Notes under the pieces: generated by a model
The model's input: only the letters and a program-made list of their open reading frames with translations
What the model was told of the DNA's origin: nothing
The model's database searches: none
Shown here: one piece after another, positions 1-61,604 of the stretch
How the letters are laid out: each line of letters begins with the position of its first letter
How positions within the stretch are numbered: the stretch's first letter is position 1
Assembly (NCBI GenBank): GCA_008632985.1
Contig: QPGO01000131.1
Location: forward strand, 62,001-126,000
DNA: 64,000 bases
DNA from: Psammoneis japonica
Taxonomy: Eukaryota
Reading direction: 5' to 3'
Position numbers and translations under genes: made by a program

Positions 1-54
1 ACACAAAAACCATTGGAGGTCCAACACACACATTTGTGAAAAAAAAATGTTGAA

Positions 55-722
55 CCTTCTGACAGAATTTGAACAAGAATGACTCGCTCTTGCTCTGCCC
101 CTGTCATTCAAGCATTGGTGGTGTCAGGTGGACATGGCGCAAGCAGAACTCTGGCCCACTGCAAGATCTGGTGCAACACCTTGCTGCTGTCTCCATGGCA
201 GACAAGTCTCCATGCAGAGACCATCACAGGTGCCCCTGTGAACAATGAGGACATGTGTTCCAGGGTCAGGAACAGTTTCATTTTGGTCTGGCCAGGTGGA
301 GGTGCCTGGTCTCATGCCTGTGATGACACGCCCAGATGTTCAGACACCCAGACAGCTGAGACACACAGTTGGTGTGACTCGAATCCAAGCCCACTCGCAC
401 CAGAATGCACCACCATTGTCACCAACAGATCACTCCACTCCCCAACACAAAAACCATTGGAGGTCCAACAGGCATGACACCAGGCACCTCCCCCTGGCCA
501 AACCAAAAGTTGTTTCTGACCCTGGAACACATGTCCCCATTGTTCACAGGGGCACCTGCAATGGCCTCTGCATGGAGACTTGTCTGCTGTGTAGACAGCA
601 GTGAGGTGTTGCACCATGTCTGGGCTGGAGCTCTGCTTGCTGTGTCCACCTGAAGTCATTGACACTCAAATGACAGAGACAGAGCAAGAGTGAGTCATTC
701 TTGTTCAAATTTTGTCAGAGGT
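55..722. repeat. Foldback/MITE-like inverted repeat (arms about 55-322 and 467-722, spacer about 145 bp)
   Basis: ctgacagaatttgaacaagaatgactc...ggtgcctggtctcatgcctgt on the left is the diverged reverse complement of acaggcatgacaccaggcacc...gagtcattcttgttcaaattttgtcagag on the right. acacaaaaaccattggaggtccaaca occurs at 1-26 and again at about 445-470. Confidence 0.75.
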
Positions 723-2502
723 CCAGACAAGTGAAAAGGTGTTGGAAGTCCAACACCATTGGAAAAACTGCAGGGTGGACCTCAAGGGTTTTGGCTCAAA
801 ATGCAAAAGGCCTCAAACTCCTCTTTTTTGATGACAAGCAAGCATTGTGATGATGAAATTTGAGCTGTCTGAAGGCATTGCTTTTGACCCTGTTGCTCCT
901 GTTGGAAAGAAGTGTCGCTTTGGCATGGGTTCTGTTGTTCTGTTGCCAAGAAACAATCCGCGTCAATCTGGCAGGAAGAATTTGTTCAATCATGAGTGGG
1001 GGGCACTGCCTGTGTTGACACACATGCCAGACCAAGTTGATGGCAAACACCCCATGTCAATGTTGAACAAAACCCATGTGGCAAAGGAGCGCCAAACAAC
1101 AAACCTTCCCATTCAGCAACTCCTGCAGGAAACTGGAGGAGCAAGGAATTCCATTCAAACCCACTGCAACATGTGCAGAACTCAACACTCTGCTGCATCA
1201 AAACAAACAAGCTGTTTCTTTTTGCTGGACTGCAAACAAATCAAAGAGACTTCAGATGGGTTGGATTGCTGGGGTGTCAAACATCTTTCAATCACCTCCC
1301 ATGCCAGTCAATGCCACCCAAGGTTCCCACACAAAATGGCGCAGAGCAAAATTCAAAATCAACATCATCATCAACAACATGGCCTCAAGCTCCATTGCAT
1401 TGACTGCTGGATGAATGAAATGAACAAGGTGTTGTGTGCCAACACATGCCATGCTAGAAGATCTTGAGTGGCAGTCATGAAAAAATGCAGCTGGGGCCAT
1501 CCCCAGCCAAACCACAAGAGAAGACATGCTCAACAACATCAACCGGAGTGCCAGAAACTGACAAACATCAGCAGCAAGAGCTGTGCACACCAGAGATGTC
1601 AACATCAAAAGTGCAACATGTGGCTTGCATCCAACAAGACACCTCTCCACAGCCTGCAAAGAAGGCTGGTGTAAAAAGGAAGGCAGGGCAATGAAAACAT
1701 CAACAATGGCTTGATTTGAGAGCTGCTGGGCCTCACACCATGTCAAGAAGCACCCTGTCAACTGCAGCGCAGATGAGCCCATCAATGCAATGGCAGCTGC
1801 AATTGATGTGGATGGCAAAGTGAAGAATGCTGAAAGAGTGCGATGTCAACAGCCAACACAGCCGTGTCATCACATCCATCTCAGAGAGTGCAGTCTCCAT
1901 GTGAAGTGCACCACTCAAGCTTGAATGTTTTTGTGCATGACAGATGCAGCCATGGACTTGACAAAACCAGCAACAGACCAGAAACACAGTGAGGTGCAAA
2001 AGACAGCCCTCATTGTGGTTGCTGCCAAAGCCACAGGACACAGAGGAGCGTTTCCACATGGTCCAGATGCAAAATCCAGACACAAGCCAAAGACAAGAAA
2101 GGGTGCCTCAACACAAATCATGTGCACTCCTTCAGAGGAGCCAAGGTCACCATTGCAAGACCAAAAATGGCCAAGCAAGAAAGAAAACACTTGCTTGCTG
2201 CTTGGCAAAATGTCAAGCAAGAGCCGATGGATGGAAACCTGGCGAAGCTGGCAAGGAGCTCCAGCTCCCTGGAAGGGAACCAGCAGCAGTGGGGGCAGGG
2301 CTTTGGCACTTCAAATTTTTCACATCTTGCCTGGTGTCATGCAGAGCTCTGCACATTTTTGCATGATTTTGCACCAATTTTGTGCTGTTTTGCAGTGCAG
2401 TCATTGGGCCGGCCACCTGCCCACTCAACAACTTTTGGCATTTTTGCGCAACAGCTGCACCTCTGACATCATGATGTCCGCAGAGAGACCAGAGCTGCTG
2501 TG

Positions 2503-2534
<32 letters not shown>

Positions 2535-2700
2535 CAGATTTTCCAATGCTTTGAGCATTGAGAGACACAATTTGGTGCTGCAACAAAAGCTGTCTTTTGT
2601 TTGGGTGCTGAAAACAACCCGTGCTTGTCTCCTGCCTGACAACACATGATGTGGGTGCCAAGAACAACACACGCTCTGAGAGCTCAACTCAGACATCGAG
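723..2700. mobile_element. Decayed repeat/TE relic depleted in TA and CG, family not recognisable
   Basis: Very few TA or CG dinucleotides; many overlapping Tyr-free, Cys/His/Gln-rich spurious ORFs. Confidence 0.5.
2502..2536. repeat. (CA)n microsatellite
   Basis: gcacacacacacacacaaacacacacacacacaga. Confidence 0.9.
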
Positions 2701-3413
2701 ACAGTGCCCCCCGCTCACTCTCTGGTGGATCAGCAGCAAAAACTGCATTTCACCAGGATCGTCATTGGGGGGTTGTTCACATTTTATTTGTGGGATGAAC
2801 CCAAACCGTCGCCACACCCACAAACGTGTTCAGGCAAGGGGTCAAGCGGGCGGGTGGTGAGAAAAGCCTCACGCCCAAAATTTATTCGGATATAAGCTCT
2901 CTTAGAAATAACATCCTTTCAACGGATTTCCAACGATAGTTTTATGTACATCACTTTTTTAGAGTACTGATAAAACAAAGTACACAGGACATGACACAAA
3001 ATTCCAAAAGTTGCGTCGGTGTCAAATTCCGCCCACAGGGAAAGGGGAAAAAGCGAGAATACCATAAAATAGGACCGGACCACCGCACTTCTTGTGGTGC
3101 TGTAATTACTCAATCACAATCTACTGTAGGGAGGAACTTCAGAATCCTTTGAGTTAACCACCATGGTGTGTCGGATCTTTGCATTTCTGTGGCACCTACA
3201 ACCACAAGACTTTTTGGTTTCTCCAGGATACACTCACTTTACTTGGAACGAACATCTGGTATGACTTCTGGAATGCAACACAAAAGAGCTGATCCTCCTC
3301 GTAGTCGAAAGCCATGCTAACTTTCCAAGTTGTTTTCCTTCATTGTATAGACATATTCAAAGAGGAATGGCAAGGATCTTCGGGACCGCCTTACCGCTCG
3401 CTTTTCATCTTCC

Positions 3414-16599: not shown

Positions 16600-18070
16600 T
16601 CACCCACTTGTTTGCCATGATTTTATCAGGTTCTGTGAAAGTGATGATGGTGCCGGCGATGACATGGCATGCCTGCAGCGGCGGGAACAAGGGGAGTCAC
16701 AGAAGTTCCTACAGCGTTTAAACATGGTTCTTACAACTATTGAGACTAAATCTGCCCTCTGGTTGAATGACAAGTTTGCACGGCTGAGGCAGTTCGTGCA
16801 CACCGTGTCTCATCACCCTGAACGGTGTCCACCATTGCGCCCCACGGAAGCGGCGCAATTGCCATCCAACGCCGGGTCGGAGACTTTCGAATTGACCAAA
16901 GACATTGCAAAATGTTTGACAGCTCGAGAACCTTTACCTCCTGCCCCCATTGTTGTAAAAGTTGCCATCAAGGACAAGAGAACCGAGCGATGACACAACA
17001 AGAAAAATTTTACAAAAGTGACACTCCGCGCTGTTGTGCCGAGTTTCAGGAGAGCTGCCACCCTTCTCCACATCATGATTGAAACTAGAGCCACTGATCT
17101 TTGATGCACTTGTCTTGGATTCGGCATCTTCCGTCTCCAAACTCTTTTCATCCGGGGCACGAGTGCAGCCGGCATTCTCCAACACGTTGTGTGCATCTTG
17201 AGACAGCGTCTTGTTCCGAATGAAGTAGTTTGGCGCAATCCTTGGAATGGTGACGAATGAATCACGCTGTTCTTTGTAACACCTGTGACCATTTTCTCGA
17301 AATCCAAACTTACAGCAAGTGTGATGAGCACCGAGGGTGTTGAATCGGTCCCGTTCCGTCGCGGCGGCATCACGCTTCCCACGCACTGCATTCTCCACAT
17401 CACAAAGGGGGAGTGACGGACAGCCACCATGCTTCAGAATCGAGTGCATCGCTGCGTTGTCCATCCAATGCCACTTGAGATTGGGTGGAAGGTGAAGGAG
17501 CACTGTCGACACAGCGCTGCAAACGCCATTGTCATTCGCGCGCATTCTGAGATTTTCATGATTTTTGAGAACTGTGGCATGTTCGTGTAGATTCCAACGC
17601 ATTCCCCTCCACGCGGCGCTGCTGCATTTTTGTATGGAGCATGTCTGGGTTGCAGGTCCATTCGGAACCTTAAGACAAGACATGTGCTTTTCAACCCTCA
17701 GAGAGAGATCGCGCGGGGACTGGCGCGGCGCCTGCGCACGCTGCAGCGCTGCAAAAAACAAAAACAAAAAGCAAAAACGACCGCCGCAATCCGCGGGCGC
17801 TGATGATGATGCTCGACACTACGAATTGTTGAACAATTGCATGATGCATGTGCCCGAAGCTCGAATGTCGTTGCCCAAAGCAACAATCACCGTTCGTGCA
17901 GATGTCCATTCTACATGGCACATGGCATTGAAAACACCATTGGAGTCGCGTGAGTCATCGCGGGAATTTCATGAAATGACCTCTGTGGTGCAGTGCTACG
18001 TGATCTACACAAATCGGACATTCTCAAATGCTGGTGCATGTTCTGTGGTCTCCATGTGCGCGAAGCTCGA
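16600..18070. mobile_element. Partly decayed repeat of unknown family; the neighbouring DNA transposon abuts it
   Basis: TA-poor, with broken Cys/His-rich minus-strand ORFs (16813-17767); no domain recognised. Confidence 0.35.
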
Positions 18071-18294
18071 ATGGAACCATGGGAAAGTCAAAATCGTGGG
18101 GCAGCACTGAAACGCCGTAGAAAATCAAGTAGAAAATGAATGGTCGAAGGAGTCAAAAACCCACCATCCAATGATCGCGATCGCTTTGGGGCCCTGCTTT
18201 GCTGCCAGTCGTCGAGTGACAGCATCCACTCGGAGTGCGACTCTAGCCAGCCAGAGGGCCTGCCATCTAAAAGCCACCAAGCTGTTCCAACACC

Positions 18295-18570
18295 AGCACA
18301 GATCCAAGTGTCATTTTGACATCACACACCATGCGCCTTTGTTGAAATGCATCACACAAAAAGCTGACTCGGAAAGTCCACGCCTCCCAGACTTCGCAAA
18401 AACTAAACCAAGGCGACAGCTGCGACTGCACAACATGTAAAAGCCATGCAACTGGTCTAAAATTAGTGCAGATCTGAGTGTCACTTTGACACAAAACTGT
18501 GAGCCTTCACTGAAATGCATCACACACAAAGTTGACTCGGAAAGTCCATGCCTCCCAGACGTCGCAAACT
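18295..18570. repeat. Diverged tandem duplication (period about 170 bp) of the transposase 3' end
   Basis: tgaaatgcatcacac..gactcggaaagtcca.gcctcccagac at 18343 and 18511; both copies translate as WEAWTFRV.F.CDAFQ. Confidence 0.8.
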
Positions 18571-20183
18571 AAATCAACACTCCATTGCTGGTTTCTCATG
18601 CCGCAACTGAGAAACCAGGACAGTTTGCATCGTTTTACGGCTCGCTCATTGCCTGATCTTGTCACAGCAACACATGCTGAACGAAGTGCATTGACACCTG
18701 AAAGCTTGTCAACTCTGTCTGGTTGGCAACACAGCTGCTCCTCCCACTTTGCTTCCAACAGCAGATGGCATCCTTTGTCAAATGTGTTCAAGAAGTGCTT
18801 CACAATTGTGCCCTCTCCTCCCGCAGGCGTGTCATTCTCAGCAAAACGTTTTTGCAGCTCAAGCATCTTTGTGAATCGAATCTGCTGGTCATCATCACAA
18901 TGGCCTGTGACAAGAGGAAGGCCAAAAATCCAGTTGCAGAGCTGCGCGGCAATTCCAGCTTTGGCGCAGCACATTCCACAATGTACATTGTGCAGTGATT
19001 GATTCACATCCCCAGAGCTCGGGTCTCCCATGTGCATGTTGGACGCATCATGCATCACAGGTCGGTGGCCATCTTTGGGGTTAAAGTGTCGGTCCCACTG
19101 GCGCTTGCGGAACTTCACATCCTCGTCGTATGATGCATGCATTGGCCATCGCTCATGGCACTCCAACTCCTTCTTCAATCGGCATTTTAGCGCCTTTCCC
19201 AACGTCTTGTGATCTGCACCATGCTCCCTCTCCCAGTCCTCCCAACGTGCCATTGTTCGGCCAAATGAAAATTCGCACGTGAAGAGGAGCTCTTCAACAA
19301 AAGTCACACAGGTTGCCGTCTTCATCATTTCATCCAAATTGCCACCGTGCACTGTTGCACCATGCTTGAGAAGATGCTTCAAATTTGAAAATCCCGTGCG
19401 ACGCTTCACTTCCTTGGGAGTGAGTGAGAAGAGCCCGATCTTTGGTTTGTCCCGGCATCGACCTGCAGCTTTCTCACCGGCTGTTGCTTCCTTTTGTGAA
19501 GAAGTTTTTTTGCTCTCATGCAATCCTTCTTGTACAAGCGCATGTTGCGTCTGAACAGACAAGACAGATTCTTGAGCACTTGCATTGACAACATGGCGGA
19601 GCATTTCTCGGTCAGTCCCCAGTCCATCAGAATCAGTTCTTGGAGGCGAGTGAAAGCTCTTCTGAGACCCGATTGGCTTTGGCGCTTCAAATGCTTTGAT
19701 CGGCACATGCTCCTTGTTGCACTTCGTTGACTTTCCTTTCACCATTTCCATTGGGTGCTCGTCACAATGCCTGAGCTCTCCTTTGCCATGCGCTCTTCCC
19801 AGGCCCATGCGATCAGTCCACTCGCGCCGCTTGAACAGTCGGATTTGGTGAGATTTTTGTCGTTGATTGCTCGAGCCGGACGGCAGCTCCTTTGGATGGT
19901 TCGGAGCTTTGTGAAATTTTCCAAAGCAATTCTTGCCATTGTTTGAGCAACCTTTGAAGTGACAGTGTTTGTGCTTTCTCTTTTTCTTTTCAGGACTGGG
20001 TTGCACATTTTTGGTGGAATGCAAACGGTCGGTGGCAGAACTCAAAATGTTTGTCATGTCAGCAAGCAGCCGCCCTTGACGCAAACAAGAACCGGCGCTT
20101 CTGCTGGTGCCTGAACCCGCCAGCAATCGAGGTCGCTTCGATGATGGTTTTATCACAGAAGGCGCTTCTATCCCCGTTTCCAC
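18507..20183 (-). pseudogene. DDE_Tnp_4 (Harbinger/ISL2EU-type) transposase with a THAP-like N-terminal region
   Basis: CHFKGCSN...FHKAP...W...HCDEH; RRTGF; VMHDASN; TGHCDDD; FDKGCH (DKGY-like); RSGNERAVKRCK. Confidence 0.75.
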
Positions 20184-22999
20184 CCTCGCCTTGACGAATG
20201 CTGTAAAATGGCATTCTCAAATCTATCTGCCATGCGATGCACCCACTGGTGCTCGGAATTATAATCCACCGCGGGATCATTTGCTCTTGGAGATCGAGCA
20301 TGCGCAAGCTTCACACCAATTGGAGCATCCACGTTGTTGGCTTTCGCTGACTCTTTTTCTGGATGCAGCTCGTTCATTCTGTCTTTGCCAAATGGCACAG
20401 ACATTGTTTTGGTCGCCAAGACAACGTTGTCGAATTCGGCCGTGGTTGCCGTCCCTTTGGGCATGTTGGGAATGTCAATGCCAAAAAGGGGCTCGGGGTT
20501 AGATTCAGGGTTGCTTTCGTTTTTTATCAAGTTGTCGGCTTTCCTAACAGGACTTTCGCACTTTCTTTGTCGTGCAACAGACCAAGATCTTGCAACATTG
20601 GTTCTCCCGGGGAAAGCTTTTCCCGTCTGTTGTTGCTGAGCAATCATTCAACAGCTCCACAACCGTGGCAGTGGATTGCAAGGTGGGCGGAACCCGACCC
20701 GACGCCTTGATCAATTGAATGACGTTGTCCTTCAACTTTTTCAACAATGGAGCCCCCACCTGACCGCTGATGTTTTCTTCCTTTCTAAGGCGACTGCAAA
20801 GGCCAGCAAGGACAAAAGATGACATTGTTCCACCACTTCGAAACAGCAACTGGCTTCCCTGAGCTGGCCGACCAAAACTGTGCATGCAGGCAACACGATC
20901 CTCTCCCAAATTTGATGCAGACTCGTTCACACACCCAGCCCGGCAGCGACATGATGCAGCAACTAGTTCAGTGGCATTGAATGCCGTGGCTCCCCTGCAT
21001 TTCAGCGATTTCATCGAAGCAAGAATCTCGTTGCTCAAAATCAGACACTCTTTCCCCTCGTGGGCAGCAAGAGTCACGGTTCCAAGTAAAATGTCCGGAG
21101 CACCGGCGTCCGTTGCGTGTCGAATGCCCCTCTTGCACAGTCGCTCACCTGTGTGAACTCTGGCGTTTTCAGCCACAGCCATTGCATTCCGCGGAAGGAC
21201 GTGCTTGTGTGAAAGCTTCTCCCCTGGCTTTTGGATTCCGAGTTTGGTTAGAGACGCCAGAATGTCAACAACAGCTACGACGGAAGCAAGCGGCATGTCT
21301 TCATCTGCAATGAGCTCCGGCAGCTCCTCCACATTAACAGTTTTCGATTGAACAAGATGGGGCTGAGATGCATGAAGGGCGGATGTTGGCAACAGAGGAC
21401 ATGCCACTCCTTTGACTTCTTCCTCAAAATCAAGAAACAAGCCGGACTTGGCATCCTCGTACAGCGACAATGCTTCAAGGTATGATGCATCCACGGGCAC
21501 GGACTGGCCTTTTGTTGCAATGCATTGTCGCATTTCCTGTTCGTCAAGGTTGTCACCTCCACCACCTTCACCAGCACCAAACACGATGCCTCTGAAGCAC
21601 TCAAGGCACACTTACATTCCTCTCCACCTGGCAGCTCCTCCTTTTCATCGACAAAGCAAAATGCACACAGTGCACTGTTGCACATGGCACATGTCTGTAC
21701 AGACTCCACCCCCAAAAAAGTGTGACTCCCACATCCTGACCCTTTACATGTTGCAATTTCGGGACCCTCGACGACCCTTGTCTCTGACGCGGCAAAGTCA
21801 GAAAGGCAAGACTCGAGCACCGCTGGCGCCCCGCACATGCAGCCGTTGTCATCGTCACTCGTTTTTTCGTGCAACAATCCCTTTGCTAGACATGACACTG
21901 CATCGCTGGAGTTGACAGCTCCTCCATTCACACCCGCAATGTCTTCCGCAAGAGCTTTGTGCAGCTCTTTCCCAGTCTTCTGTGAGTGCCTTGCAAGCAA
22001 ATCAACTGCAGCTTTTGGACCACATCCATCGACTCCTTGTGGACAAGCATCACAACCCAACAGGAGAGCTGCAAGGGCCCTTGTCATCGGATCATCAACC
22101 CCACTGAATGTTGGGTGGCCTGGAGTTTGGCCATCGCGTTTGGTGTCTTTGTCTTTTTCAAATGGCGAATGCCCCAATTTCACACTCAGAGTCTCCTCGA
22201 CAATCTCAGCAATCTTTTGCTGACCAGTGCAAAGCCGACATGCTGTAATGGGATCCTTCATTTTCGAAATAGAGATGTCTTTGATCATAACATCAAGTCC
22301 ATTTGGACCGACGTACATCGAGAAATCTGAGTCACCCGACGCAATTGCATCGGCATCCGAGTCGACAACCAATTTTGCAACACACGGGTCCGCCTGCATC
22401 GGTGCAGTGACAATGGAGACCACGCCTTTCCCCTGTGGATCATATTCTTCCACCACACTTGTAAGATTTGTGTGAAAATCCGGCGTCAACCCGCGATCCA
22501 GCATGCTTTCTAGGCTGCGGATCTTCTTCTGGGCCTTGCCCACTTGCTCCGCATGGTCTGCCGGACTTTCAACGCTTTCAGCTCCAAGGAGACTCTGCAA
22601 ATTAGATTGAGCAATAAAGAGCCGAGTCTTGGCCTTTTCAGCTTCAGCACGGCGTCTACAAGAGGCATGCTTGGAGGCATGACGGTTCGTCGGATGGTCG
22701 CAGACAATGTGAACGTCGCACAGTTTTTCAGACAGAGCCTTGGCTGTGTGAAAGACAGCATGCTCTGGGAGGAATGATGAGCAGTTGCCAGCATACTTAT
22801 ATGCTAATAGATTCGCATCAAGCACTATCTTCAATCGTTGTCTCGGGGGAGAGGAGTCGATCTCAACGCTCTCTGCCGCTGCTCGAGTTTGTCGTTCCAA
22901 ATGATCCCTTTTTGCCACTTCTTGGATGACCAGCAGCATCAAATCAAGAGGAAGCTTTACAGTCTTCCAAAGAATAAGATGAGCACCCTTTAGACCCAT
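20168..22999 (-). pseudogene. Transposon-borne XPG/FEN1/EXO1-like PIN nuclease plus Cys-rich finger and SWIM-like finger, frameshifted
   Basis: KIVLDANLLAY, VHIVCD, APMQADP, IASGDSDF, H3TH-like LLGCDACPQGVDGCGPKAA; CAMC..LCAFC..CLEC; CRCRAGC...ACMH. Confidence 0.7.
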
Positions 23000-23414
23000 C
23001 TTTCATACAGAGGAGTGTTGGTTCGGCAACAATATGATGACTTGTCAAAGAAGAGTGCGTCACGATTGATGGCTGTAATGAATTTCAAGCCGTCTCAAAA
23101 TTTCTCGTTTTAGCGCGGCGAAGTACGATCGTACTTTCTACGTAATTTTAAATAATACTGCCCCACACTTTTGGACTTTCCCACGGTTCCATTTCGTGCC
23201 CGAAGCAACAATCACCGTTCGGGCACGTGTATCGCGCAATTGTTCAGCAATTCGTGTAGTACTTCGTTTTCAGTTTGTTCTGTGTTCTTGTCGCTTGTCG
23301 CTGCTGTTGCGAGTGATTGATATTGTTCGTCTACAGAAACGTAGCAACATTCGAACCCTTGTTTGTTTTTCGATTGGAAGGGCATTCTACAAGGTCCCTG
23401 CTACGTCAGTCGCA

Positions 23415-24665
23415 ATGATGAGTTCTTCCATGAAGACACCGTTTCGAGAAAATGCAGAAGAGGTCTTGCCCGTCCACGTGAGCACTCCTCAAGACATGGC
23501 TCACGTGGTTGTAACCCTCTGCCCCGACTTGTTTCCTCGTCTGAATAGCAACAAGGACGAAACTGCTCCATGGGATGGCTTTCACGAAAAGAAAGAGGAC
23601 GCACAAGTCACCGCGAGCTCTCCCGGTCGTTGCAACGTACGACCTCTTTCAGGAGGGCTTTCGAATGAACTGTTTATTGTATCGTCGCGGGAAAAGGAAA
23701 GCAATTCTGTCTTGGTTCGGATTCATCCTCCTAGTCAAGAGGGACAAGACGATATTGTCAATCGAGAGGTTGAGAATCGAGTCATGGCCTTTCTGAGCAA
23801 AGAGGGAATTGCTCCCACCTTTTACGGACGCTTTCTGAATGGACGTGTCGAGGAGTTTTATACGAATTACCGCCCCTTGTCGTGTCAAGAAATGCCGCAA
23901 TACGCCTCTCAAGTAGCATTTCGTTTGGCTCAACTTCATCAGCTGACTGTTCCTGACGGAGTTCTTGCGATCAACGCAGTAGACTCCAGCGACTTCGGGG
24001 ACTACTGTGCTCAGGTCGAGTCTTGGCTCCAACTGGCACACAGACAACAAGAGCTTCATAAACGAGAATTATTAGAGGGAAAAGATTCCGTATTGTATCT
24101 GGATACACTCGAGAATGAACTTCAGTGGCTGAAACAACAACTGAGCTCGTCAAAAGTTGATGCCGACAGCAGTAGCACGGCATCTCGAGCGGCGACGTTT
24201 TGTCGAGAGATTGTTTTCACTCACATGGATTGTCAGTGTCTCAACGTGTTATTGTCTGAAAAAACAAATGATTTGAAAGTCATTGACTTTGAATACGCGG
24301 GTCGAAATGCCCGTGCCGCTGATATTGCCAATACCTTTTGCGAATTTTGCGACATGAACAAGCTCAAGGCGGACTTTGCAACACAGTATCCGTCGATTGC
24401 GTTGCAAAACGAATTTATTGAAGCCTACATGAACGTTATTAGGCCGGAATGGGTGCTAGAGTTAAAAGATACAGACTGTTGGGGGGAATTCTTATCCGGT
24501 ATGCGGCACGAGATTGGTCGACACACCTTGTTGTCGCATTTGGGATGGGCGGTATGGAGCATTGTACAGAGCGAGAAGTCTGCAATCGATTTTGATTATA
24601 TTGCTTATGCGAAACTTCGAATGGAGGGGTACAACTACTTTCGATCGAAATACTTTGACATATAA
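23415..24665 (+). CDS. Choline/ethanolamine kinase
   Basis: LSGGLSNEL, VLVRI, RFLNGRVEEF, Brenner motif FTHMDCQCLNVL, VIDFEYAG, DIANTFCE. Confidence 0.93.
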   Translation: MMSSSMKTPFRENAEEVLPVHVSTPQDMAHVVVTLCPDLFPRLNSNKDETAPWDGFHEKKEDAQVTASSPGRCNVRPLSGGLSNELFIVSSREKESNSVLVRIHPPSQEGQDDIVNREVENRVMAFLSKEGIAPTFYGRFLNGRVEEFYTNYRPLSCQEMPQYASQVAFRLAQLHQLTVPDGVLAINAVDSSDFGDYCAQVESWLQLAHRQQELHKRELLEGKDSVLYLDTLENELQWLKQQLSSSKVDADSSSTASRAATFCREIVFTHMDCQCLNVLLSEKTNDLKVIDFEYAGRNARAADIANTFCEFCDMNKLKADFATQYPSIALQNEFIEAYMNVIRPEWVLELKDTDCWGEFLSGMRHEIGRHTLLSHLGWAVWSIVQSEKSAIDFDYIAYAKLRMEGYNYFRSKYFDI

Positions 24666-30407: not shown

Positions 30408-32163
30408 TCAGTAAACGGCCCTTCCTCTACTGGCGTCAAAGAAAAAGCCAGTCGTAAAGGCGGCTTCCGGAGAGGCAATGAGGCAACTAGCCTCGCAATC
30501 TCATCAATCGTTCCACGCCTCTTCATCGGTATTTCTTCAGTCATGTGCTTCACCTGCACAGCAGGAACATCTTCCACCATTTTCGTCTTTTACTACAGCC
30601 GGTACAAGCGCATTGCAGGTGATGCTGGTCTCGGCGCATTCTTTTCCAGTCGTCTTTGCTGCAGCAATCACGGCCGCCTTGCTGGCAGAGTGGGTCGTGG
30701 GCTGGCATCCCTGTGTTGTCCTCCTTCCCGACAATGGACGCAATGTTGACGGTGTGTCCACATCTGTGATCCTTCATGTGGGGAAGCAAAGCTTTACATC
30801 CATTGAAGATGCCCTTGATGTTGACATGAAAGATGGCACCAAAGTTGTCAGGTACGACATCTTCAGTCTTGTGGTTTGTTGCTCCCACAATCCCTGCACC
30901 TGCCCCAGAACATCTGCACAACCACCACTTCTTTCCACAGTGCTCCTCCCCAGGCATTTGAAACTGCTGTGGCATCTGTCACATTGCAAGCATCAAACTG
31001 AAAAGGTTGAACAATGTGTCGCATCTTGGAGCACACTGTGTTGAGTGTGTCTTGGCCCAAACCAAGAACAATTGCAACATGGGAAGCCAACTCCAAACCA
31101 AGTTGAGTGGCAATGATGTGTGGCCAATTCCACAAGCACCACCAATGACAATGCATGTCATGCCCTGGAGGCAACTGGAGAGAAATGGCTTTGCAAGCTC
31201 AACAACATTTTCTTCTCATGGTTGCAGAGGTCCCACAATCAGCGCAACCAGCACTCCAATGCCATCAATCTCACACTTGACAACGTGTCACCAGGTGCAA
31301 TCCACCTTGGAGGATTGCAAAAATGCCCCGCTCCTGGAGGTGTCCCCATTGCAACAATGTCTCAAGCGTGCAAGGTTGCTCATGAATCTGGATGTGAGTG
31401 TGATGAGTGTGTCAAGGGGGGAAGAAGACAAGCTCTTTTTGTCGAGGAGACTTGGAGCATCTTGCCATTGACACAGCACCAAATTCCAGCATTGTGAACA
31501 CTTTCAAATGTCACCTCATCTTGAGTGACACAGCTGCTGGACCAATTCTTGGAGCATGTCCATCTGCAGCTTTTCCCAGCAGCTGCTGATCTCCATTCTG
31601 TTCAACAAGCTGCCGATCTCTTGCCAAGATGTCATGGTGCACCGCTGTGTGACGGCTGCCAGTGTGATGATTCGCAGCTTTTTCTCATGGTGCATTTCAA
31701 GGCACCATCAATCCACAATGACCACACCAAGCCTGGCTTCACAATCAAGCTTTTTGGTGGCTTTGTCTTTTGATGCCAGATTGCCTGGTCCAACAAAACA
31801 AGAGCCAAATGTTTCAAAAAGACTGGCACCAGCTCTTCCAGAGTCGGGACATTTTGTCAAGTGCAGTGATCAATGCAGCTCATTCCCACGCAAAAGAACT
31901 TCCCTCCACAAGCCACCCATCAAATGGAGCAAGATTGCAACAATCTTGTGACTGCACATGTGACAACAGGCTTTTGAGAGTGCAAGATTTAATGAGAGGG
32001 TTTGTTTTCAAGAACGCGCTGCCAGATCGGCAGCCAAAAATGCTCTTGCATCAGGAGAAATCAATGAAAAGTCACAGCACCTTTTAGCATTGAGGGTCTG
32101 AGCAACAAACTTCACCTTGCTGAGATGGGCAATGCTTGTAAGATGGGCCGTGGTGAAGCACAT
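30408..32163 (-). pseudogene. Decayed fusion of a fumarylacetoacetate-hydrolase domain and a short-chain dehydrogenase (LRA6-LRA5-like)
   Basis: FAH remnants: GKFFCVGMSCIDHC, KLDCEARLGVVI, LLGKAADGHAP, MGTPPGAG...PPRWIAPGD, KCEIDGIGVL. SDR remnants: CIVIGGACGIG, VNIKG.F, VNIASIVGKE, HSASKAAVI, IPMKRRG, GRAVY*. Many frameshifts and stops. Confidence 0.85.
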
Positions 32164-32199
32164 GTTGGGATCTGGAATCTGGGACACTTCCAACTCCTG

Positions 32200-34700
32200 C
32201 TGGGGGATTGTCGCATGATGTGGAGGTTCTTTCCATGTGATTTCTGCAAGTCACTTCCTGGTGCAAAAAGCCAACAGCACAATGCAAAGTGTGGGTGCAG
32301 CAATGCAGGCTCTCTCAACACCAGAGTGCACCAAGATGGCTGGGTGTTGTGGGTTCATCTCTTTCCTTTGGCAAGCTGGTCAACAGATGTGACACAACAG
32401 AGGCTGCTTTCATTTCTGCTGCACTCTTTGCATGGAGGTTGAGCACTGCCATGATGACCAGACTAGAGAAATGGCAATTGTCAACGCAAGCTCTTTCAGG
32501 TCTGTGAGGAAATGCAAGAGAGCACATGGGTGCCATCTGATTTTGAAGGAAGTTGTCATGGGTGAGAGTTTTGTCAAGAAATTTGCAGATGTTTTCATGA
32601 TGATGAAAACTGAGTGACTTTGTTGTGTCACAACAAGAGTGAGAGCTGATCACAAAAGAGGCTGCTTGAAAACATCTTTCAAGTGAGTCAATCAACACAG
32701 AAACAAGCACTTTTGTCCCTTTTCAATGGGTGGTCCCACACACACTGCACATGCATTTTTTCATCTCTTGGCCTGTTGGTGTGCTGCTGGCAATCTCTCA
32801 AGACACACACAGTGTGCAATGTCCAGTGTGCTGCACGCCAACCAGGCCATTGAAGAAATGCATTGATTGATGTTTTACAAAGAGTGCTTCACTTTGGACT
32901 GCTTTGAACACAAAGCAAGCCTGTGGTTGCTTTTGTGCACACTTGATTTTTGACCAGTTTGCAGCTCTTGCATGCATTTGCTCAAAGTTTGGCTGCCACC
33001 GCAATGCAGACACCTCCTTTCTTGTTTTGGCATTGTGGCAATGGTTGTCTGTTGTGAAGAAACATTCCTGCTGCAGTGGTTGAAGAAGGCAGCACTCTTT
33101 TCCTTTTCTGAACGCCCCCAGGGTTCTGCAAGCACCCTGGTTTTGCTTTTGTGGAAGAAGTTTTTGAGAAGAGAGACTGGGCACATGACTCTGTTGCTTT
33201 CCTGCCATGATGCTTGCAACATGCAGCTGGGAGCAAGTTGTCAAATTGGAACTTTCCTGCTGAAGTCTGTGAGTTCTGATTGTGAGCAGGCACTCAAGGA
33301 TGGCAGCAGCACCAAAATTTTCATTTTCTGCAACACCTTTTCTTCAACCCATTTCAAGCTCGCATTGACCTTGTTTGGCAGCAAGAGTGCAGCCCACTGC
33401 TGATTCCCATTGTCTTTGTTGTTGTTCTGTGGCTGGCAAGCACAATGTGTGAAATCAATGGAGGAGGTTGTGGGCACATCACAGTGCTCATTTCTGATCC
33501 AACGGCTCATGGATTGATTGGATGATGTTGCAAGTTGAAGTTCAGCACAAGAAGATGTCACAGATGTGGTCAACCACAATGTGTTGGTGGTGTCATGATT
33601 GGGGGAATCAAGCAAAGAGATTGGAAGGAGAGAGCAGGGGTGTTTGGCAGGTGGGTGGAGAAGGAGGGGCAAGAGCCAGAAAGTCAAAGGAGCTGGCCCA
33701 GGAGGGTGGCTTGGGTGGAGATTTGGCATGTGGAGAAGGAGGGGCAACAGCCAGAAAGTCAGAGGGGCTGGCCCAGCGTGGCTTGGGTGGGGAGGGATGG
33801 AAGAGAAAGGGGAGCTGGAGAGTCTGAAAAGGAAGGCAGCACTGTGTTTGTGGCAGCAGTGGCAAAGCAGCTGCCAGAGGTGAATGTGCTGTGGTGCCAG
33901 AGCTTGTCCCAGGCACTGCTGAGGCAAGCCTTGGCAATGATGTGTTCTAAAAGGGGCTGCAGATGGGGCAAAGAGGAGCAGGGGGGCAGGGACAGCAATG
34001 TTGACAGCAAGAAAGAGCGGTGAGTGGGTGGGGTGCTGGGGGGTGGGTGGAGCCAGGCAGGAACAAGAAGCTGAGCTCTGGGATGCTCTCAAGGGGGGAG
34101 GGCAGTCAGGGAGGAAGCCTTGGAAGGCTTGAGAAAGACTTGATGATGGGGTGTTGGCAGTTGGCAGAGGCTGCTGAGGGGGTGGAGGGTTTTGACAATG
34201 GAGCAAACAGCGTTGTGGGTGCGGGGCTGGATGAGGAGCCTTTGCGCTTTGCGCGCATTTTAGAGCACACGGCACATGCTGGAGGCACATGATCGCCAAA
34301 TGTCTCTGGGGACAAGTGACTGCAGGGGCAGGGAGAGGAGTGTCAGAGGTTTGGAGGGGTGGCAGGGGTGGTGGGAGCAGCAGGGAGCCAAAGCCGTTGA
34401 AGGACAAGGGGGGCAAATTGTTGGGGCAAGAGCAGGGGCGGAAGCTGCAGAGGTGGGAGCAGGAGAGGGAGGAGTGTTGGAGGGCAGAGGCTGGCAAAGG
34501 GAGAGAGCAGTGAAGGGAGTGTCAGTTGGAGGTTGGGGTGTTGAAGAAGGAGAGGGTGGTCAGCACTCACCTGTGTTGTTGTGGGCAGGTGTGTGTTGGG
34601 CCGGGTGCTGGAGGTTGTTGCCAGAAGTGGCAGAGGGCAGGAGGGGCAGCGAGTCAAACAAGCTGGAAGAGTTTGGCCAAAGAGGGTGGAATCGAGGAGC
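32200..34700. mobile_element. Relic block depleted in TA and CG, with a G-rich low-complexity part
   Basis: Dinucleotide depletion; internal repeat agccagaaagtca.agg.gctggcccag near 33673 and 33749; only spurious ORFs. Confidence 0.45.
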
Positions 34701-35226
34701 CAAAAGATGGAATAAAGGCGGAGGGAGAAGCGAGGGTTAGACCAAGAAGAGAGGGCGGCAGTGCGGCTGGGCGGTGGAGCGAAATGTTGATCGCCGATTG
34801 CATGTGCAGTGCCCAGCCATGGGGGCGGGCACATGACCTCACTTCTTACGAGTGCCACGTCACTTACTTATGCATTGATTGGATGATGTCACATGTTGAA
34901 GTTCAACATGAAGATATAGCGAAGAATCATCAATCAATCACAAAAATAATTAGCACACACACAGCATCGATCACGCTTTGATCACACAACCATCACTCCT
35001 CGCCCTGCTTCATCATACTCTGTTCTGCGAGCAGTCTTGGTCGTGTCAAATAAGCAAATCGAACTTTCGTGAACCCTTGTGTTGCAGAACTCTGCGGCAA
35101 TCTCATATTTCAGGCCAAAGGAAATTGTCCTTCAGCACTCAGCACAAGCCCATTGGACAGCGAGTAGACAGTTTCAGAGAACTCCTAACAAAGTCGGATC
35201 AAGAAGCGACACAGCATCTTCAAAAC

Positions 35227-38559: not shown

Positions 38560-39840
38560 GTAGGGATGGCAAGTTGTCATTTGCCAGTGCGCCTTCTACC
38601 TCAACATCTTTTGCACACTGGGTCAATGGAAGGTGAGACCAAGGGAGAACTTGTCAGCAGACGTTTGTGTGAGATTTCTTGTTGCTTGTCAAGGGCTTCA
38701 CCAGGTTGGATTTGAGGCATTTTGGTTGCTTGGGCATTCATCAAAATGACAGCTGCAGTGGAGCCAGAGGTCAAAGACAACAATCAATTCTTGGTGTGTT
38801 TGTGGAAAGGCCAAGATGCAATTGCATGGTGGGGAAATGTGCTGGAGGCAGGACAGGCCATCAAAGTGTGAGCTGAAGTTTCAGTGGGGGCATTGCAAAG
38901 GAAACAACTTGGCAAATTGACAAAATGCATTTTGTGGGGGTGTCCACCACAGAAGAGCTCTTTTGCCAATTGAGCCACCATCTGGAACACAGGCAGATGA
39001 GTGACTGGAGAAAGGAGCTGGCACCCTGCTTGAAGTTGGCTCTTGTGGCACCACACATCATGTCACAAGCCAGGAGCTGGCAGCACCATGTTGTGAGTCA
39101 GCTGGGCTGCTGGATGTGAGTTGTGAGCACTCTTGTCATTTGAGAATGGACCTCAGTGCACAGTGGGTTGTGTGATTTGATTGAAGAAGAAGGTTGTTTG
39201 CTCATCATGACAGAGGCTGAGTGTTTTCCTCAACTCCAATGCAAGCAGAGGCCCCCTGGAGATCAACGGAGAGTTGCAAGTCGTGCACTGGCAATGACAG
39301 CACAGTGAGTGCCACATTTCGAGCTGGACAAAAACTCTCATTGACAAGAATTGTGTTGTTGGAGATGCACTGCCAGAAAGATTTTTAAAGGCACATTGCA
39401 GGGGGGGGGGGGGCACAAAGCCTCAGCACAGGCAAATGTTGCGTGAACAAACGGCTCTGGGTTGTGCAGAAAGTGTTTTTGTGCTGGCATTTTTCAACAA
39501 GGAAGGCCACACAGGGAATTGCGGGCATGATTTGAGTCTTGGCAGCAGTTTTCTTCAAGAACAATGCCATTGTCATGTCAGCATTTGTGAAGAGCACCCA
39601 GGTTGCTGAGCGAACGGAGAGCAAGCTTTGTGCTCTTGGACCTGTGGTCTCTCTGTGCCAGCACCAGGCTCTCAACGGACAAGCTTTTGTGCATCACGCA
39701 GGAGGGAAGAATGAGAAGGGAAACCAGACAGGAGGGCCACAACATTCAAGAATGCTGTGGATGCATGAAATGCATGCAATGCATGCAATGCAAAAAGGCT
39801 TGTTGCAGCGAAGCTGACATTTGAGTTTTCGTCTGCTTGC
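38560..39840 (-). mobile_element. Decayed repeat block including a probable non-LTR retrotransposon 3' remnant
   Basis: Depleted in TA and CG; minus-strand CFLCNAPTETSAHTLMAC resembles the C-terminal zinc knuckle of LINE ORF2. Confidence 0.45.
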
Positions 39841-43383: not shown

Positions 43384-44062
43384 CCAAGCTGTCTTCGGGA
43401 TTTGAGTGATGGAAGTAGTGATTATGTAGATGCGATTTGATTGGTTGTTGACGTTGTGTCGGGGCCACTGACGGTTGCCGTAAAGGCAGTATGTTCTCTA
43501 CGTAGAAAGCGAAAGCATCCGGATGACGGAGAGGGTAAGAATTACACCGGCAAGCTCATTAGGCCCCCAGGGCCCTGGAGCTAAGGAGCAACATCCTAGG
43601 AGACATCGTGATAAAGAAGACGACAAAACGACTGGTGTCATTGATCGCATGGTTGCAGCATGAGCCACCACGATGGCTTGGGTTTCCGGCACTTTCGACA
43701 TGTGAAGGAAAGTTTCCCCTTCTACTCCTGCAACAGCTCTTTTTCGAACGAATCATGAGTCCAATGATTGCTGCATTGTCAACTTTTCACAGCCACAGAA
43801 GTTCCTCATGTCTCTTGTCATTTTGACTTGGTGTCTTCCCAGGCTCTGCATCCCTCAGGACTTGCTTTTCTTTCTGTGTTTGCGCTTTTTCATTTTTGTG
43901 CTTTTTCCTTTTTCGTTCATCGCTGGAGCCATCATTGCTGCTTGCCCCATTCACTGGATGCTGTAAATTGTTGTCACTCTCACAGTGTTGTCTTGTGCTG
44001 GATTTTGTTTTGTCAGTGTGTCCGCCCATGGCACCTCTTGCCTTGCTTGCTTCCACGGCTCT
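42008..44062 (+). repeat. Direct segmental duplication, copy A (about 2.05 kb)
   Basis: Collinear with 46290-48369 from catggcttcactgat to ccacggctc. Confidence 0.95.
43855..44062 (-). pseudogene. Truncated, mutated 3' fragment of the FRA10AC1-like gene
   Basis: KARGAMGGHTDKTKSS.RQHCESD...ERKRKKHK matches the end of the 48161-48964 ORF. Confidence 0.85.
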
Positions 44063-46070
44063 GGCAGAGGCAGCGACCTGCACGAGTGGGTTTCAAATCT
44101 GGCTGAGTCATGAGGTTGCTGCTCTCTGCACTGTCTTGTGCCACAGCATTGGAGAATCTGTGTGGGTCAATGTTGACAATCGGGCAACAAAGGCGTTTGC
44201 ACTGCACAACTGCCAGTGCCAACTCTGAAAATGTCACCAGCACTGTCTCCAGATGGTTGTGACTGATCTTTGTGCACCTTGTGGGTGCAAAGCTCTTCAG
44301 CTTTGTGATTGGCTGGCCACTGGCCAACTGCCAATGGGAGGAAACCAAGCAGATGTGCACCATTCATTCTCAAAAATGCAGCATTCCATCCACAAACTTT
44401 TGATGTGCATCAGAGCTGGGATGCATGAGGAACATAGAATGAAGGAGAGTTGATGCACAGACCACCTCCACTGCACTTGCCTGGATTGTCTGAAGTTGCC
44501 ATTGCTGCCGTGTTGCAAGTGGGGCAAAATGTTTTTTTGGCACAAATTTTTGAGCTAAATTGGCCAAATTTGAGTTGCAAAAAGCAGCGATTGGCACCCT
44601 TGAGTGAAGGCTGCGGCAGTAGAGGGAAGTTCTGCCTTGCGCATTGTGGCTGCATGTTGAGTCTTGTGAGTCATCATGACAACACTCTTTTGTCTGGATG
44701 GCAACCACCACCATGGCCCAATTGGGCGAAGAGGTGGATTTTGTGAAAACAATGGCACCTGCATGATTTCTGTTGTGTCCCCACCCACAGCGGCCAGCAA
44801 CATGACTCTGGTGCCAGACATGTGGACAGGTGAGTGGATGGATGAACAGACCCTGACTTTTTGAAGTCCACCCGCTCATCAGTTGTAAAAAGATTTTGCA
44901 AAGATTTGATCTTGAATGAACTTGATCTTGATCTTGAACCTGCAACAACAAACAACAATGTCAAATGTCACTGCTCAAAATGGTGCTGTCGAGTTGTTGC
45001 TCTCAGCACCGCAGCTGTGCATTCAATTGCAAGCACAGACATTTCTGAACTCAGAGATGACTGGACCACCTGCACGTGTGCATCTTCCACCTGTGTGGAA
45101 GAAGTGCTGCAAGCACAAAGGTTGGGAGCACAATGAAAAGGATCTCATTTTGCTTGGAAAGGAACAACATGGGCAAGTCGATGCTGCAAAGTGCTTGATC
45201 GACATGTTTGTTGGAATCACAACTGAAAAGGGTGGCATCAAGAAGCTCAAGCGAAGCAAGGCTGACCCTTGCATGTTGCATCATCATGATGACAAGGGGC
45301 AGTTGGAGACTGTCATTTTGATGTGCATGGACAATGGGGTTTCACATGCAAAAAGCCGGAAGTCATCAAGGAAGCCAAGGACCATTGTTTGGCAAAGAGA
45401 GTTAAGATGATGGACATTGGATGAATCAACGGCTCATTTAGGAGTTGATTGTGAATTGAACAAAGACAAACATGGTTGGCACTTTGAGTGCAGCATGCGC
45501 AAGTGCTTGGAGAAGATGATTGCAGAGTGCAAACAACCCTTCAACAAGAAGGTTGAGAACTGTGAGACACCTGCAGAGGGCAAGGGAATGTGCTGATGAA
45601 GGCAGACAAAGATCACAAGCCAGCCAAGCAAAGTGGATGTGAAGCCTTTGTTGGAAAGAGGTTGTGTGCATGTTGAAGGTCTCACCTGATTGTGCAAATG
45701 CAGACAGAGCCCCGACAATGCATTTGACGAATCCAGCTGATGAGCGCTGGTGCACGTGCTGGACAGATTCGTGGGACATCTGAAATTTCACTGTCAGGAG
45801 CCATTGAAGTTGAGGTTGCCTTTGGAGTCAAGGAGCTCAGGAACATTTGACACTGAGTGAAGAATGGACAAGAATGACCAAAAGAGCATTTCAAGTGACC
45901 TCTCCACACTGGGCGGCATGTCCTCAATCAGCTGGCAATCGAAGAAGCAGACCTTGGTGGTGGCGCTGAGCAGTTGTGAAAGTGAGACCATGGCAGGTGC
46001 GGCGGGGTGCGCACAGAGCATTCAGTTTCAGAGTCACTTGTTGGAGGACATCGTCAACGCGTGTTGATTT
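44063..46070 (+). mobile_element. Ty1/Copia LTR-retrotransposon pol relic (RT and RNase H)
   Basis: LLGKEQHGQVDAAK (LYG motif), SKADPCML, LMCMDN (YVDD), KSISS...LGG..ISWQSKKQTLVVALSSCESE. Confidence 0.85.
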
Positions 46071-58418: not shown

Positions 58419-58789
58419 TGTCGACTATATAAACCAACAAGTTTCAGAGCTAAAACCTGCAACCGTCAGCACTGTCCAGCACAAAAGCGTTGACGATGTT
58501 GGATGGTCACGTTCGTTTGGTTGTTTGGTTGCCGCTTGCAACACCAGCCACTGACATACGCGTTTGTTGAGGTTTCTCGCCCGGCGAACACCGTATCTTT
58601 TTGATTTCCTTGATTCAAACTGTGACGTAAGCGACCTCCACGACGCGCTCGCGAGATGGAGGAGCGCGCGATCCGAAGGCACTCACGAGTGGTCACTCTT
58701 TCTCTGTCTCTCTCATGTGAGCACATCTGCCAAGTTGCTGATGCTGAGGAAAAGAACAACAACACTGTCGAAATCATGTTGATCACCCA

Positions 58790-60975: not shown

Positions 60976-61604
60976 AGGATTGAACAATCCTGTTTTTCAA
61001 TCCAGCGGCATTGGACAAAACCAAGGTTGAGTGAGTCTTGTGTGACCTTGGTCCTTGACTCTTTCTGCACCCATCTGAGCAGAGCTGGAGCCAACATGTT
61101 TTGCTGTGACTGCTGACCAAAACCTTGTGGGGGAGAGCAGGGCACGCACCACACACCCGGCCTTTCTGACAATGACAGCAAGGGAGGATCTGGCTGTGGA
61201 AAATGACTCAGATTTCAGACATGGAAGCCAAGGATTGGATTTCTACAATCAAGAGACTGCATTGGGAAGTGAGGGCAGTGACAAAGAAAGACAGAGAAAT
61301 TCTAAGTGGCGCAGTTGACTCAACCAAACAACAACATGGCACACATCAAACATCAAACTCACGTCAGAGCCAAAAGCTGGCAAGGAGCACAAAGATCTGC
61401 CAAGGCGCTGGTCAAACAAATGGGGTGGAAGAAGGTTTGTGCTCATGCACTGTGCTGGTGCTGGGTGTGATTCAGGATGCAAGCTCCATGGCGCACCCCC
61501 AACTGTCACAAAGTCCTTGATGGCAATGTGAGGTGCCTTGCGAACAAATGGTTTGTTGCCAAGTTGTGCAAGGCTGTCATCAAGAAATGTGATGAAGAGC
61601 ATGG

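Follow-up and report, generated by a model that had tools for sequence, protein, structure and literature searches.

Region-limited loss of TpA, and separately of CpG, in transposon and repeat DNA of the diatom Psammoneis japonica: a probable footprint of hypermutation

The stretch of DNA considered here, referred to as the window, comprises 64,000 nt of Psammoneis japonica contig QPGO01000131.1 (forward strand, 62,001-126,000), and all coordinates given below are relative to it. The window is compact diatom nuclear DNA whose genes have few interruptions; those recognised with Pfam encode V-ATPase A, a rhomboid protein, choline kinase, a choline-transporter-like protein, an enolase-superfamily protein, an aminotransferase, TFIIF-beta and others. 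Among these genes of normal composition are interspersed seven sharp-edged blocks, together 31% of the window, from which the dinucleotide TA (TpA) is nearly absent. By segmentation, the observed/expected ratio (o/e) of TA is 0.01-0.18 in the blocks and 0.59 in the gene-bearing background. Two of the blocks, at 17.1-22.3 kb, hold the left end and most of a transposon that has terminal inverted repeats (TIRs) and a degenerate transposase gene, and five are relics in which CG (CpG) is depleted as well. The features are listed in Table 1.

The change in composition is narrow. Of all 16 dinucleotides, TA and CG alone are reduced, and the excess is confined to TG and CA, with a TG/CA o/e of 1.49 in the CG-retaining blocks (1.46-1.49 in the two sub-blocks of the CG-retaining domain 17086..22293) and 1.80-1.86 in the blocks low in both. 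AA, AT and TT are as frequent as in the background, TC has an o/e of 0.90-1.11 against 1.12, and GC content is unchanged or slightly up (0.48-0.52 against about 0.48). The pooled background itself has a TA o/e of 0.59 and a CG o/e of 0.95, so that TA is mildly under-represented throughout the window. Both strands are affected about equally, the TG share of TG+CA being 0.44-0.55 in all eight blocks scored. The strongest loss is of TA preceded by A (ATAN/NTAT), which stands at 0.06-0.15 of background against 0.23-0.53 for the others; this is a hint only, because just 55 TA survive. Divided into 128 intervals of 500 bp, the window has 88 of normal composition, 26 in which both TA and CG are low, 14 in which TA is low and CG kept, and none in which CG is low and TA kept. 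Counted by kilobase, TA and CG o/e are 0.07-0.30 and 0.61-0.79 over 18001-23000, 0.03 and 0.75 at 63001-64000, and 0.01-0.06 and 0.07-0.29 in the relic kilobases (1-2000, 31001-34000, 44001-46000 and 59001-63000). A preliminary description of this DNA had stated that the transposon is poor in TA and rich in CG, that 63200-64000 is in the same state, and that relics lack both dinucleotides. All three statements are borne out: TA and CG o/e are 0.13-0.18 and 0.71-1.07 at 17.1-22.3 kb, 0.03 and 0.75 at the window end, and 0.01-0.05 and 0.15-0.29 in the five relic blocks.

Table 1. Features of the window, in order of position; TA, CG and TG/CA values are o/e ratios and ORF stands for open reading frame.
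Feature	Position	Strand	Remarks
Relic block, both lost	1..2753		TA 0.02, CG 0.15, TG/CA 1.91
TA-depleted, CG-retaining sub-block (transposon left end)	17086..17968		TA 0.18, CG 1.07
Outer left inverted-repeat arm	17821..17858	+	Pairs with 23218-23255; 38 nt, 87% complementary; inside the TA-poor domain
Inner left inverted-repeat arm	18070..18093	+	Pairs with 23170-23193; 24 nt, 92%
Degenerate transposase gene, ~1,500 codons, frame-changed pieces	18507..23002	-	ORFs 21275-23002, 20544-21611, 20168-20647, 18507-20216
TA-depleted, CG-retaining sub-block (most of transposon)	18589..22293		TA 0.13, CG 0.71
Right part of element	22294..23169		TA density recovers toward background approaching choline kinase
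Right terminal repeat arms	23170..23255	-	Outside the depleted domain, ~170 bp upstream of choline kinase start; TA and CG kept
Choline/ethanolamine kinase gene	23421..24665	+	Normal composition, TA 0.49-0.56, CG 1.21-1.22; right boundary of the depleted domain
Relic block, both lost	30742..34719		TA 0.04, CG 0.16, TG/CA 1.78
Relic block, both lost	38663..39752		TA 0.01, CG 0.16, TG/CA 1.85
Relic block, both lost	43711..46030		TA 0.05, CG 0.29; left edge from about 43690
TA-depleted block	58581..63999		TA 0.04, CG 0.29; 58581..63000 is the both-lost relic part
Second TA-poor, CG-retaining stretch, window end	63001..63999		500-bp windows TA/CG 0.03/0.88 and 0.04/0.64

The direction of the change can be read from relatives of the transposase. 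The 569-aa ORF at 18507-20216 (minus strand) has 19 homologues, and a profile search of a representative library yields 1,442 family members, the longest of 1,446-1,977 aa. A conserved Tyr column was defined as one with Tyr in at least 70% of the homologues, and there are 10 such columns. At these, the window has five His, three Cys, one Pro and one Tyr. It matches the family at 193 of 246 other conserved columns, and in 17 of the 19 homologues 7-9 of the Tyr columns scored for that homologue have kept Tyr. The His and Cys codons of the window (CAT, CAC, CAT, CAT, CAT, TGT, TGC and TGT) correspond to TAT or TAC in most of the 16 metagenomic relatives, and all eight are a single transition from TAY; the ratio of five His to three Cys accords with conversion on both strands. 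It had been remarked that expected tyrosines read as Cys or His, as in DKGCH, HCGMCCAK and WPMHAS; these motifs lie in this ORF, and the remark holds at 8 of the 10 columns. A family consensus itself poor in TA and Tyr would have told against the preliminary description. This is not the case, since the TA o/e of the homologous stretch is 0.44-0.85 in 15 of the 16 metagenomic relatives against 0.09 in the window and Tyr is kept as stated above, and the direction from TA to TG or CA is thereby established.

The same comparison provides a balance of losses and gains. Per kilobase of coding strand, the mean of 12 relatives is 45.4 TA, 41.2 CG, 86.5 TG and 72.7 CA, and the window has 5.9, 39.4, 107.2 and 89.6, respectively. 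TA has thus fallen by 39.5 (87%), TG has risen by 20.7 and CA by 16.9 (37.6 in sum, about 55:45), and CG has fallen by 1.8. When the majority state among relatives is taken as the ancestor, a rough procedure that gives a state at 612 of 1,710 sites, none of 14 ancestral TA is kept (seven are CA, six TG and one GA) and seven of nine ancestral CG are kept. A family member in a metagenome record (P0133) has Tyr at none of nine conserved columns, with four His and five Cys instead. In a 5.7-kb public contig with a distant family member (L010), the matched stretch has a TA o/e of 0.15 and a CG o/e of 0.22, and this contig represents another case of hypermutation, independent of the window and sharply bounded. 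Its interior (501-5000) has TA at 0.00-0.30 and CG at 0.13-0.33, its first and last 500 bp are normal, and it has no Tyr at the conserved columns.

The change occurred in place in this genome, as is seen from the TIR arms, the TA gradient along the element, its other copies and the edge of a paralogous segment. Four of the five mismatches between the outer TIR arms set TG or CA on the left against CG or TA on the right, and where the alignment is extended (18065-18123 against 23199-23135) the right arm is rich in TA and the left has CA and TG. From 22301 to 23300, the TA counts per 200 bp are 3, 4, 6, 6 and 11. TA therefore rises along the last kilobase of the element toward choline kinase, and the border follows the neighbourhood and not the element. 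The element is multi-copy because 355 contigs of run X1, a public run that contains this DNA, match 16000-24700 at 80-100%, 117 of them at 99% or more. The window differs from these copies at 517 transition and 135 transversion places. Among the 40 listed of 659 variant places, the window has TG or CA against TA at eight and the reverse at one; it has TG or CA against CG at seven, and CG against TG or CA at three.

The paralogous segment is a 2-kb segmental duplication, with copy a at 46290-48369 and copy b at 42008-44061, which are 88.6% identical and keep a normal TA content (76 and 67). The differences between them comprise 79 transversions, 66 other transitions, 28 CG-type and 22 TA-type changes. 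The last 370 bp of copy b fall within the depleted block that starts near 43.7 kb, and they were compared with copy a at 47780-48369. All seven TA sites of copy a are converted in copy b (five to TG, two to CA); of its 17 CG sites, seven are kept, nine are TG or CA and one is CT. Over the first 1.5 kb of copy b (42008-43507), TA was lost in copy b at no site and in copy a at nine. Each copy also contains a long minus-strand ORF (41555-43228 and 46239-47678) whose NUMOD3 DNA-binding motif is known from homing-endonuclease-like proteins.

That TpA conversion is faster than CpG decay, as had been proposed, is supported by the transposon, in which none of 14 ancestral TA but seven of nine ancestral CG survive and CG per kilobase is unchanged while TA is down by 87%. 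It is supported again at the paralogue edge, where exposure time is equal and seven of seven TA but nine of 17 CG have become TG or CA. Across the window, the 14 windows of 500 bp low in TA only, against none low in CG only, likewise show TA conversion to be the more complete. The companion proposal that the two losses are separate is also supported, both by the TA-only blocks here and by relatives of the transposase in other hosts, in which the matched stretch has decayed in CG only (TA/CG o/e of 0.44/0.31 in L006, 0.56/0.17 in L012 and 0.46/0.44 in L014). CpG decay in these hosts apparently proceeds in the absence of the TpA process.

The expected damage to coding capacity, namely removal of Tyr codons and of TAA and TAG stops, is confirmed as well. 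ORF 18507-20216 has 0.2% Tyr, 4.4% Cys and 5.6% His, against family means of 3.5%, 3.0% and 2.7%. Per kilobase and strand, TAA and TAG taken together number 17.7 in the background, and this figure drops to 4.9 in the younger and 1.6 in the older blocks; TGA goes from 17.6 in the background to 21.6-24.0 in the depleted blocks. Because TAA and TAG have been lost, the depleted blocks contain many long overlapping ORFs.

The relic blocks contain no domain recognisable with Pfam (ORFs of at least 150 aa, then up to E<=1), and the ORFs of 63001..63999, scanned up to E<=1, gave no Pfam match. Within the block 58581..63000 lies a degenerate tandem array of ~200-bp units (58839-60996). Among pairs of its 11 aligned units, adjacent double transitions are CA<->TG in 321 cases and AT<->GC, the next most frequent, in 93, and TA<->CG does not occur. 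At 13 sites at least two units have TG and at least two have CA, and four of these sites still have one CG. Judged from the sequence, this alternation of CA and TG is what independent conversion of ancestral pyrimidine-purine dinucleotides in each unit would be expected to give. The CG-retaining blocks are plausibly the younger ones, as the transposase is still alignable over ~1,500 codons with few frame changes.

The direction of the change, its dinucleotide specificity, strand symmetry and regional limits, and the greater completeness of TA loss are observed directly. We consider it likely that they reflect a hypermutation of TpA to TpG or CpA, limited to certain regions, that proceeds faster than CpG decay and can be separated from it. 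Repeat and transposon DNA between normal genes would undergo transition hypermutation limited to certain regions. TpA would become TpG or CpA with little difference between the strands and nearly to saturation, an A:T to G:C change restricted to TpA. A second and slower conversion of CpG to TpG or CpA would take place in the same regions, and its simplest cause would be the deamination of methylated cytosine, which is usual in methylated diatom transposons. An element would thus pass from a state with TA gone and CG present, represented by the transposon at 17.1-22.3 kb and by 63.0-64.0 kb, to a later state with both gone, represented by the five relic blocks. The TpA step would ruin proteins by turning Tyr codons (TAY) into His (CAY) or Cys (TGY) codons, and it would delete TAA and TAG stops. 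The conversion would respect the borders of regions and not those of elements; the right end of the transposon, beside an active-looking gene, would have been spared and the paralogue end inside a block would have been hit. As the leading candidate for the chemistry we infer the deamination of adenine in DNA by an ADAT2/TadA-like enzyme. The natural tRNA substrate of ADAT2-type enzymes, U33-A34, offers a TpA-like context.

Several points weigh against this explanation. The labels "young" and "old" are our own reading of the blocks, and the old blocks could be a different repeat class that is more heavily methylated at CG. The ancestor was derived from relatives only 34-66% identical in protein, and the counts are small (14 TA and 9 CG). 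At the paralogue edge, the contrast of 7/7 with 10/17 (counting CT) corresponds to about P=0.06, one-sided, by hand calculation, and the two copies differ at many further positions in this stretch (53 and 35 per 300 bp). The variant counts rest on 40 of 659 places, chosen by support, and run X1 may be the source sample of the window, in which case it shows variation among copies and not independence. The all-His/Cys pattern occurs in only two of 143 family proteins, the window ORF and P0133; this set (142 database proteins and the window ORF, each covering at least four Tyr columns) is biased to intact copies. An active, targeted process is suggested by analogy with the chlorarachniophyte Bigelowiella natans.

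B. natans is probably the closest known case, and what is new here is probably that the host is a diatom, that the targets are ordinary transposons and repeats, and that decay takes two steps, TA and then CG. In mutation-accumulation lines of B. natans, integrated giant-virus and virophage regions acquired 231 mutations, of which 230 were A>G/T>C and fell without exception on TpA; the rate was ~6e-7 per site per generation, ~1000-fold above background, and the process was seen in some lines only (Mettrop et al. 2026, bioRxiv 10.64898/2026.01.13.699255). The preprint reports TpA-depleted, CpA+TpG-enriched clusters that are enriched for DDE and reverse transcriptase domains, and its authors propose an ADAT2-like DNA adenine deaminase (bioRxiv 10.64898/2026.01.13.699255). 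By our own arithmetic on the figures from that other organism (211 mutations over 6,169 TpA and 3,132 generations), the rate would be roughly 1e-5 per TpA per generation, TA would be erased within ~1e5 generations, and the process would thus be fast enough to precede CpG decay. The window resembles B. natans in TpA>TpG/CpA transitions on both strands, in discrete foreign or silent regions with unaffected genes between them, and in the TpA-depleted, CpA+TpG-rich footprint. Transitions (13 of 14 ancestral TA became TG or CA), confinement to TpA and regional limits are all found here; CG loss lies outside the B. natans description. The host, in contrast, is a diatom (Stramenopila) and not a chlorarachniophyte rhizarian, and the targets are a cut-and-paste transposon, tandem repeats and relics instead of giant-virus and virophage inserts. 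The depletion is near saturation (o/e 0.01-0.18), compared to 0.45 given for an insert of a nucleocytoplasmic large DNA virus in B. natans. Finally, CpG loss follows here, and the accessible preprint text makes no mention of CpG, diatoms or stramenopiles.

Other known systems share part of the pattern. Repeat-induced point mutation (RIP) of ascomycetes is likewise a defence-like, dinucleotide-specific and region-limited transition hypermutation that destroys transposons, but its conversion of CpA to TpA increases the TA and AT content, whereas here TA is removed and A:T becomes G:C. The DNMT4 enzymes of diatoms are related to fungal RID, and a review states that their role there is not known (PMC9998398). 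Methyl-CpG decay matches the change of CG to TG or CA in the five relic blocks (CG 0.15-0.29) and at 9 of 17 paralogue CG sites, and it occurs alone in L006, L012 and L014; however, it cannot account for the TA loss, which is more complete and occurs where CG is untouched. A-to-I hyperediting of the ADAR type shares the A>G change, the preference for a 5' U/T and the direction against repeats, but ADAR acts on RNA. The change seen here has been fixed in DNA, in a cut-and-paste element; it favours neither strand and reaches DNA outside the element. Literature searches found no TpA>TpG/CpA hypermutation in diatoms, and those on A-to-G hypermutation as genome defence turned up only base-editor and ADAR papers.

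A different chemistry at the same dinucleotide is unlikely. The thymine of TpA would be modified in silenced repeats to 5-hydroxymethyl- or 5-formyl-uracil by a TET/JBP-type dioxygenase, and mispairing with G would give T>C. 5-Formyluracil mispairs with G, and at the self-complementary, palindromic TpA the changes A>G and T>C are indistinguishable from sequence. In dinoflagellates, 5-hydroxymethyluracil marks and silences transposons and replaces T preferentially in TA and TC (PMC11572971); TC is not depleted here (0.90-1.11 against 1.12), which mildly disfavours thymine oxidation. We regard as rather improbable a single DNA deaminase with adenine and cytosine activity. Within the same silenced regions it would convert TpA fast and CpG at a slower pace, and the CG loss would then not be ordinary methyl-cytosine decay. 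It would explain why both conversions yield TG and CA and always fall in the same blocks (0 of 128 windows are low in CG with TA kept), and ADAT2 enzymes that deaminate A and C in DNA are cited in the B. natans preprint (bioRxiv 10.64898/2026.01.13.699255). B. natans, however, has no G/C mutations in the hypermutable regions (210/211 and 20/20 were A>G/T>C), and CG methylation of diatom transposons is documented (PMC9998398). Moreover, some blocks have lost TA and still have CG at 0.7-1.07, and L006, L012 and L014 show CG decay without TA loss, so no TpA activity is needed for it. 

An artefact of assembly or base calling, in which modified bases of heterochromatin are misread as transitions, is very improbable. 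Base modifications do cause systematic errors in long-read consensus sequences, but homologous sites of the tandem units carry TG in some units and CA in others, unlike a systematic miscall, other copies in run X1 differ at exactly these sites, and the unrelated metagenome records P0133 and L010 show the same change of Tyr to His or Cys. In addition, 117 of the 355 independently assembled contigs of run X1 are at least 99% alike, which is weak when taken alone because X1 is perhaps the source sample. It is scarcely credible that no targeted process is at work and that the TA-poor state is native or stems from selection or GC-biased gene conversion among repeat copies. TA is mildly low throughout the window (o/e 0.59) and ectopic conversion is possible in a multi-copy element; yet the transposase family is not TA-poor, Tyr residues of the catalytic core are destroyed, which argues against selection, and the 2-kb duplication at 88.6% identity retains normal TA (76 and 67). 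A conversion bias from AT to GC is opposed by AA, AT and TT, which are not depleted, and by a GC content of 0.48-0.52 against about 0.48; general GC-biased conversion is excluded by the strict TpA specificity. Other candidates were rejected too. WA mutagenesis of the polymerase eta type is ruled out because AA is not depleted, and RIP of the fungal type because the change runs in the opposite direction (TA o/e 0.01-0.18, GC unchanged or slightly up). Duplication as a RIP-like trigger fails because the 2-kb duplication is unaffected and only its end inside the depleted block is converted. RNA editing fixed through a retro-intermediate is ruled out by the strand symmetry (TG +20.7 and CA +16.9 per kb) and by the TIRs and the DDE-like transposase.

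If region-limited TpA hypermutation is a form of editing defence, TA loss would be a fast clock and CG loss a slow clock for dating the silencing of elements, and the two-step decay could serve to order silencing events. TpA-specific hypermutation of foreign DNA has been described once so far, in a chlorarachniophyte; the diatom footprint would extend the phenomenon to a second major lineage, one that is among the main primary producers of the ocean, and to transposons and repeats as targets, not viral inserts alone. Hosts of the same transposon family differ, some showing TA loss and others CG-only loss, so that candidate deaminases or dioxygenases could be compared across hosts. A wider proposal can be made only tentatively, and we would sooner doubt it than rely on it: diatoms may possess a chromatin-directed DNA editing system that rewrites every TpA in silenced mobile DNA, evolutionarily fast and independent of cytosine methylation, likely through an adenine deaminase of the ADAT2/TadA kind, and the rhizarian Bigelowiella may have that very system, which would hence be old and widespread in the Stramenopila-Alveolata-Rhizaria group. 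There is also a consequence for annotation. The blocks carry long spurious ORFs, real proteins read Cys or His at Tyr positions, and gene callers and domain searches are misled because stops are lost and Tyr is replaced; no fully converted block has any Pfam match.

The transposon resembles PIF/Harbinger-like (THAP+DDE_Tnp_4) transposons in several respects. The C-terminal part of its transposase is THAP-like and DDE-like and the N-terminal part weakly XPG-I/FEN1-like; the homologues P0121-P0123 align from 21281 to 18513 through frame changes, and a C2CH-like motif and a D..D(KGY)..E(RSGNER) pattern are seen in the alignment. Language-model features place the intact homologue P0121 beside THAP+DDE_Tnp_4 clusters (score 0.91, 184/256 features). 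A PIF/Harbinger-like transposon would match the DDE_Tnp_4 profile, but ORF 18507-20216 matches no Pfam family at E<=0.1. It would also have TIRs and a 3-bp TWA target duplication, of which the TIRs are present here. The family also differs in that its proteins are ~1,450-1,980 aa long with a weak XPG-I/FEN1-like N-terminal region, features that may recall the Academ superfamily. At E<=1, the 23 ORFs of the depleted blocks and transposon gave sub-threshold Pfam noise only, save for a weak XPG_I match. In sequence searches of PDB, the N-terminal ORF found FEN1 at E 0.2-0.8 and the transposase profile found no match.

The left end of the element is compound, with two partial terminal copies, and no target duplication is readable. 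Its right end lies at 23254/23255, beyond which the run X1 contigs of other copies diverge. No second copy was found in the window, either by self-BLAST or by tblastn with the 19 homologues. One contig joins 18052 to 23213 with 40 other letters between, a TIR-to-TIR deletion form, and the genome is suggested to hold many short TIR-to-TIR derivatives of the element that resemble miniature inverted-repeat transposable elements. Contig depth over the terminal-repeat regions (17746-18036 and 22984-23274) is far above that over the element interior. The 3' end of the transposase gene has a 168-bp tandem duplication (18264-18411 and 18434-18577, 79% identical) that repeats the last ~20 codons.

The genes of the window support a diatom origin to differing degrees of similarity. 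The V-ATPase A fragment shares 86-93% identity with the matches listed, of which the named ones are all from diatoms, with the exception of one 64% match in an ostracod record; the named matches of choline kinase are diatoms at 33-41% identity. A choline-transporter-like gene (25496-26353, plus strand) adjoins the choline/ethanolamine kinase gene, and the two may be a functional pair. A single ORF of 865 aa (4769-7363, plus strand) combines an N-terminal aspartate decarboxylase domain with a C-terminal class I methyltransferase domain, an unusual fusion. At 57122-57317 lies an imperfect tandem repeat with units of 54 and 108 bp (77-95% matches), within a GC-rich stretch that has ORFs open on both strands (56571-57671).

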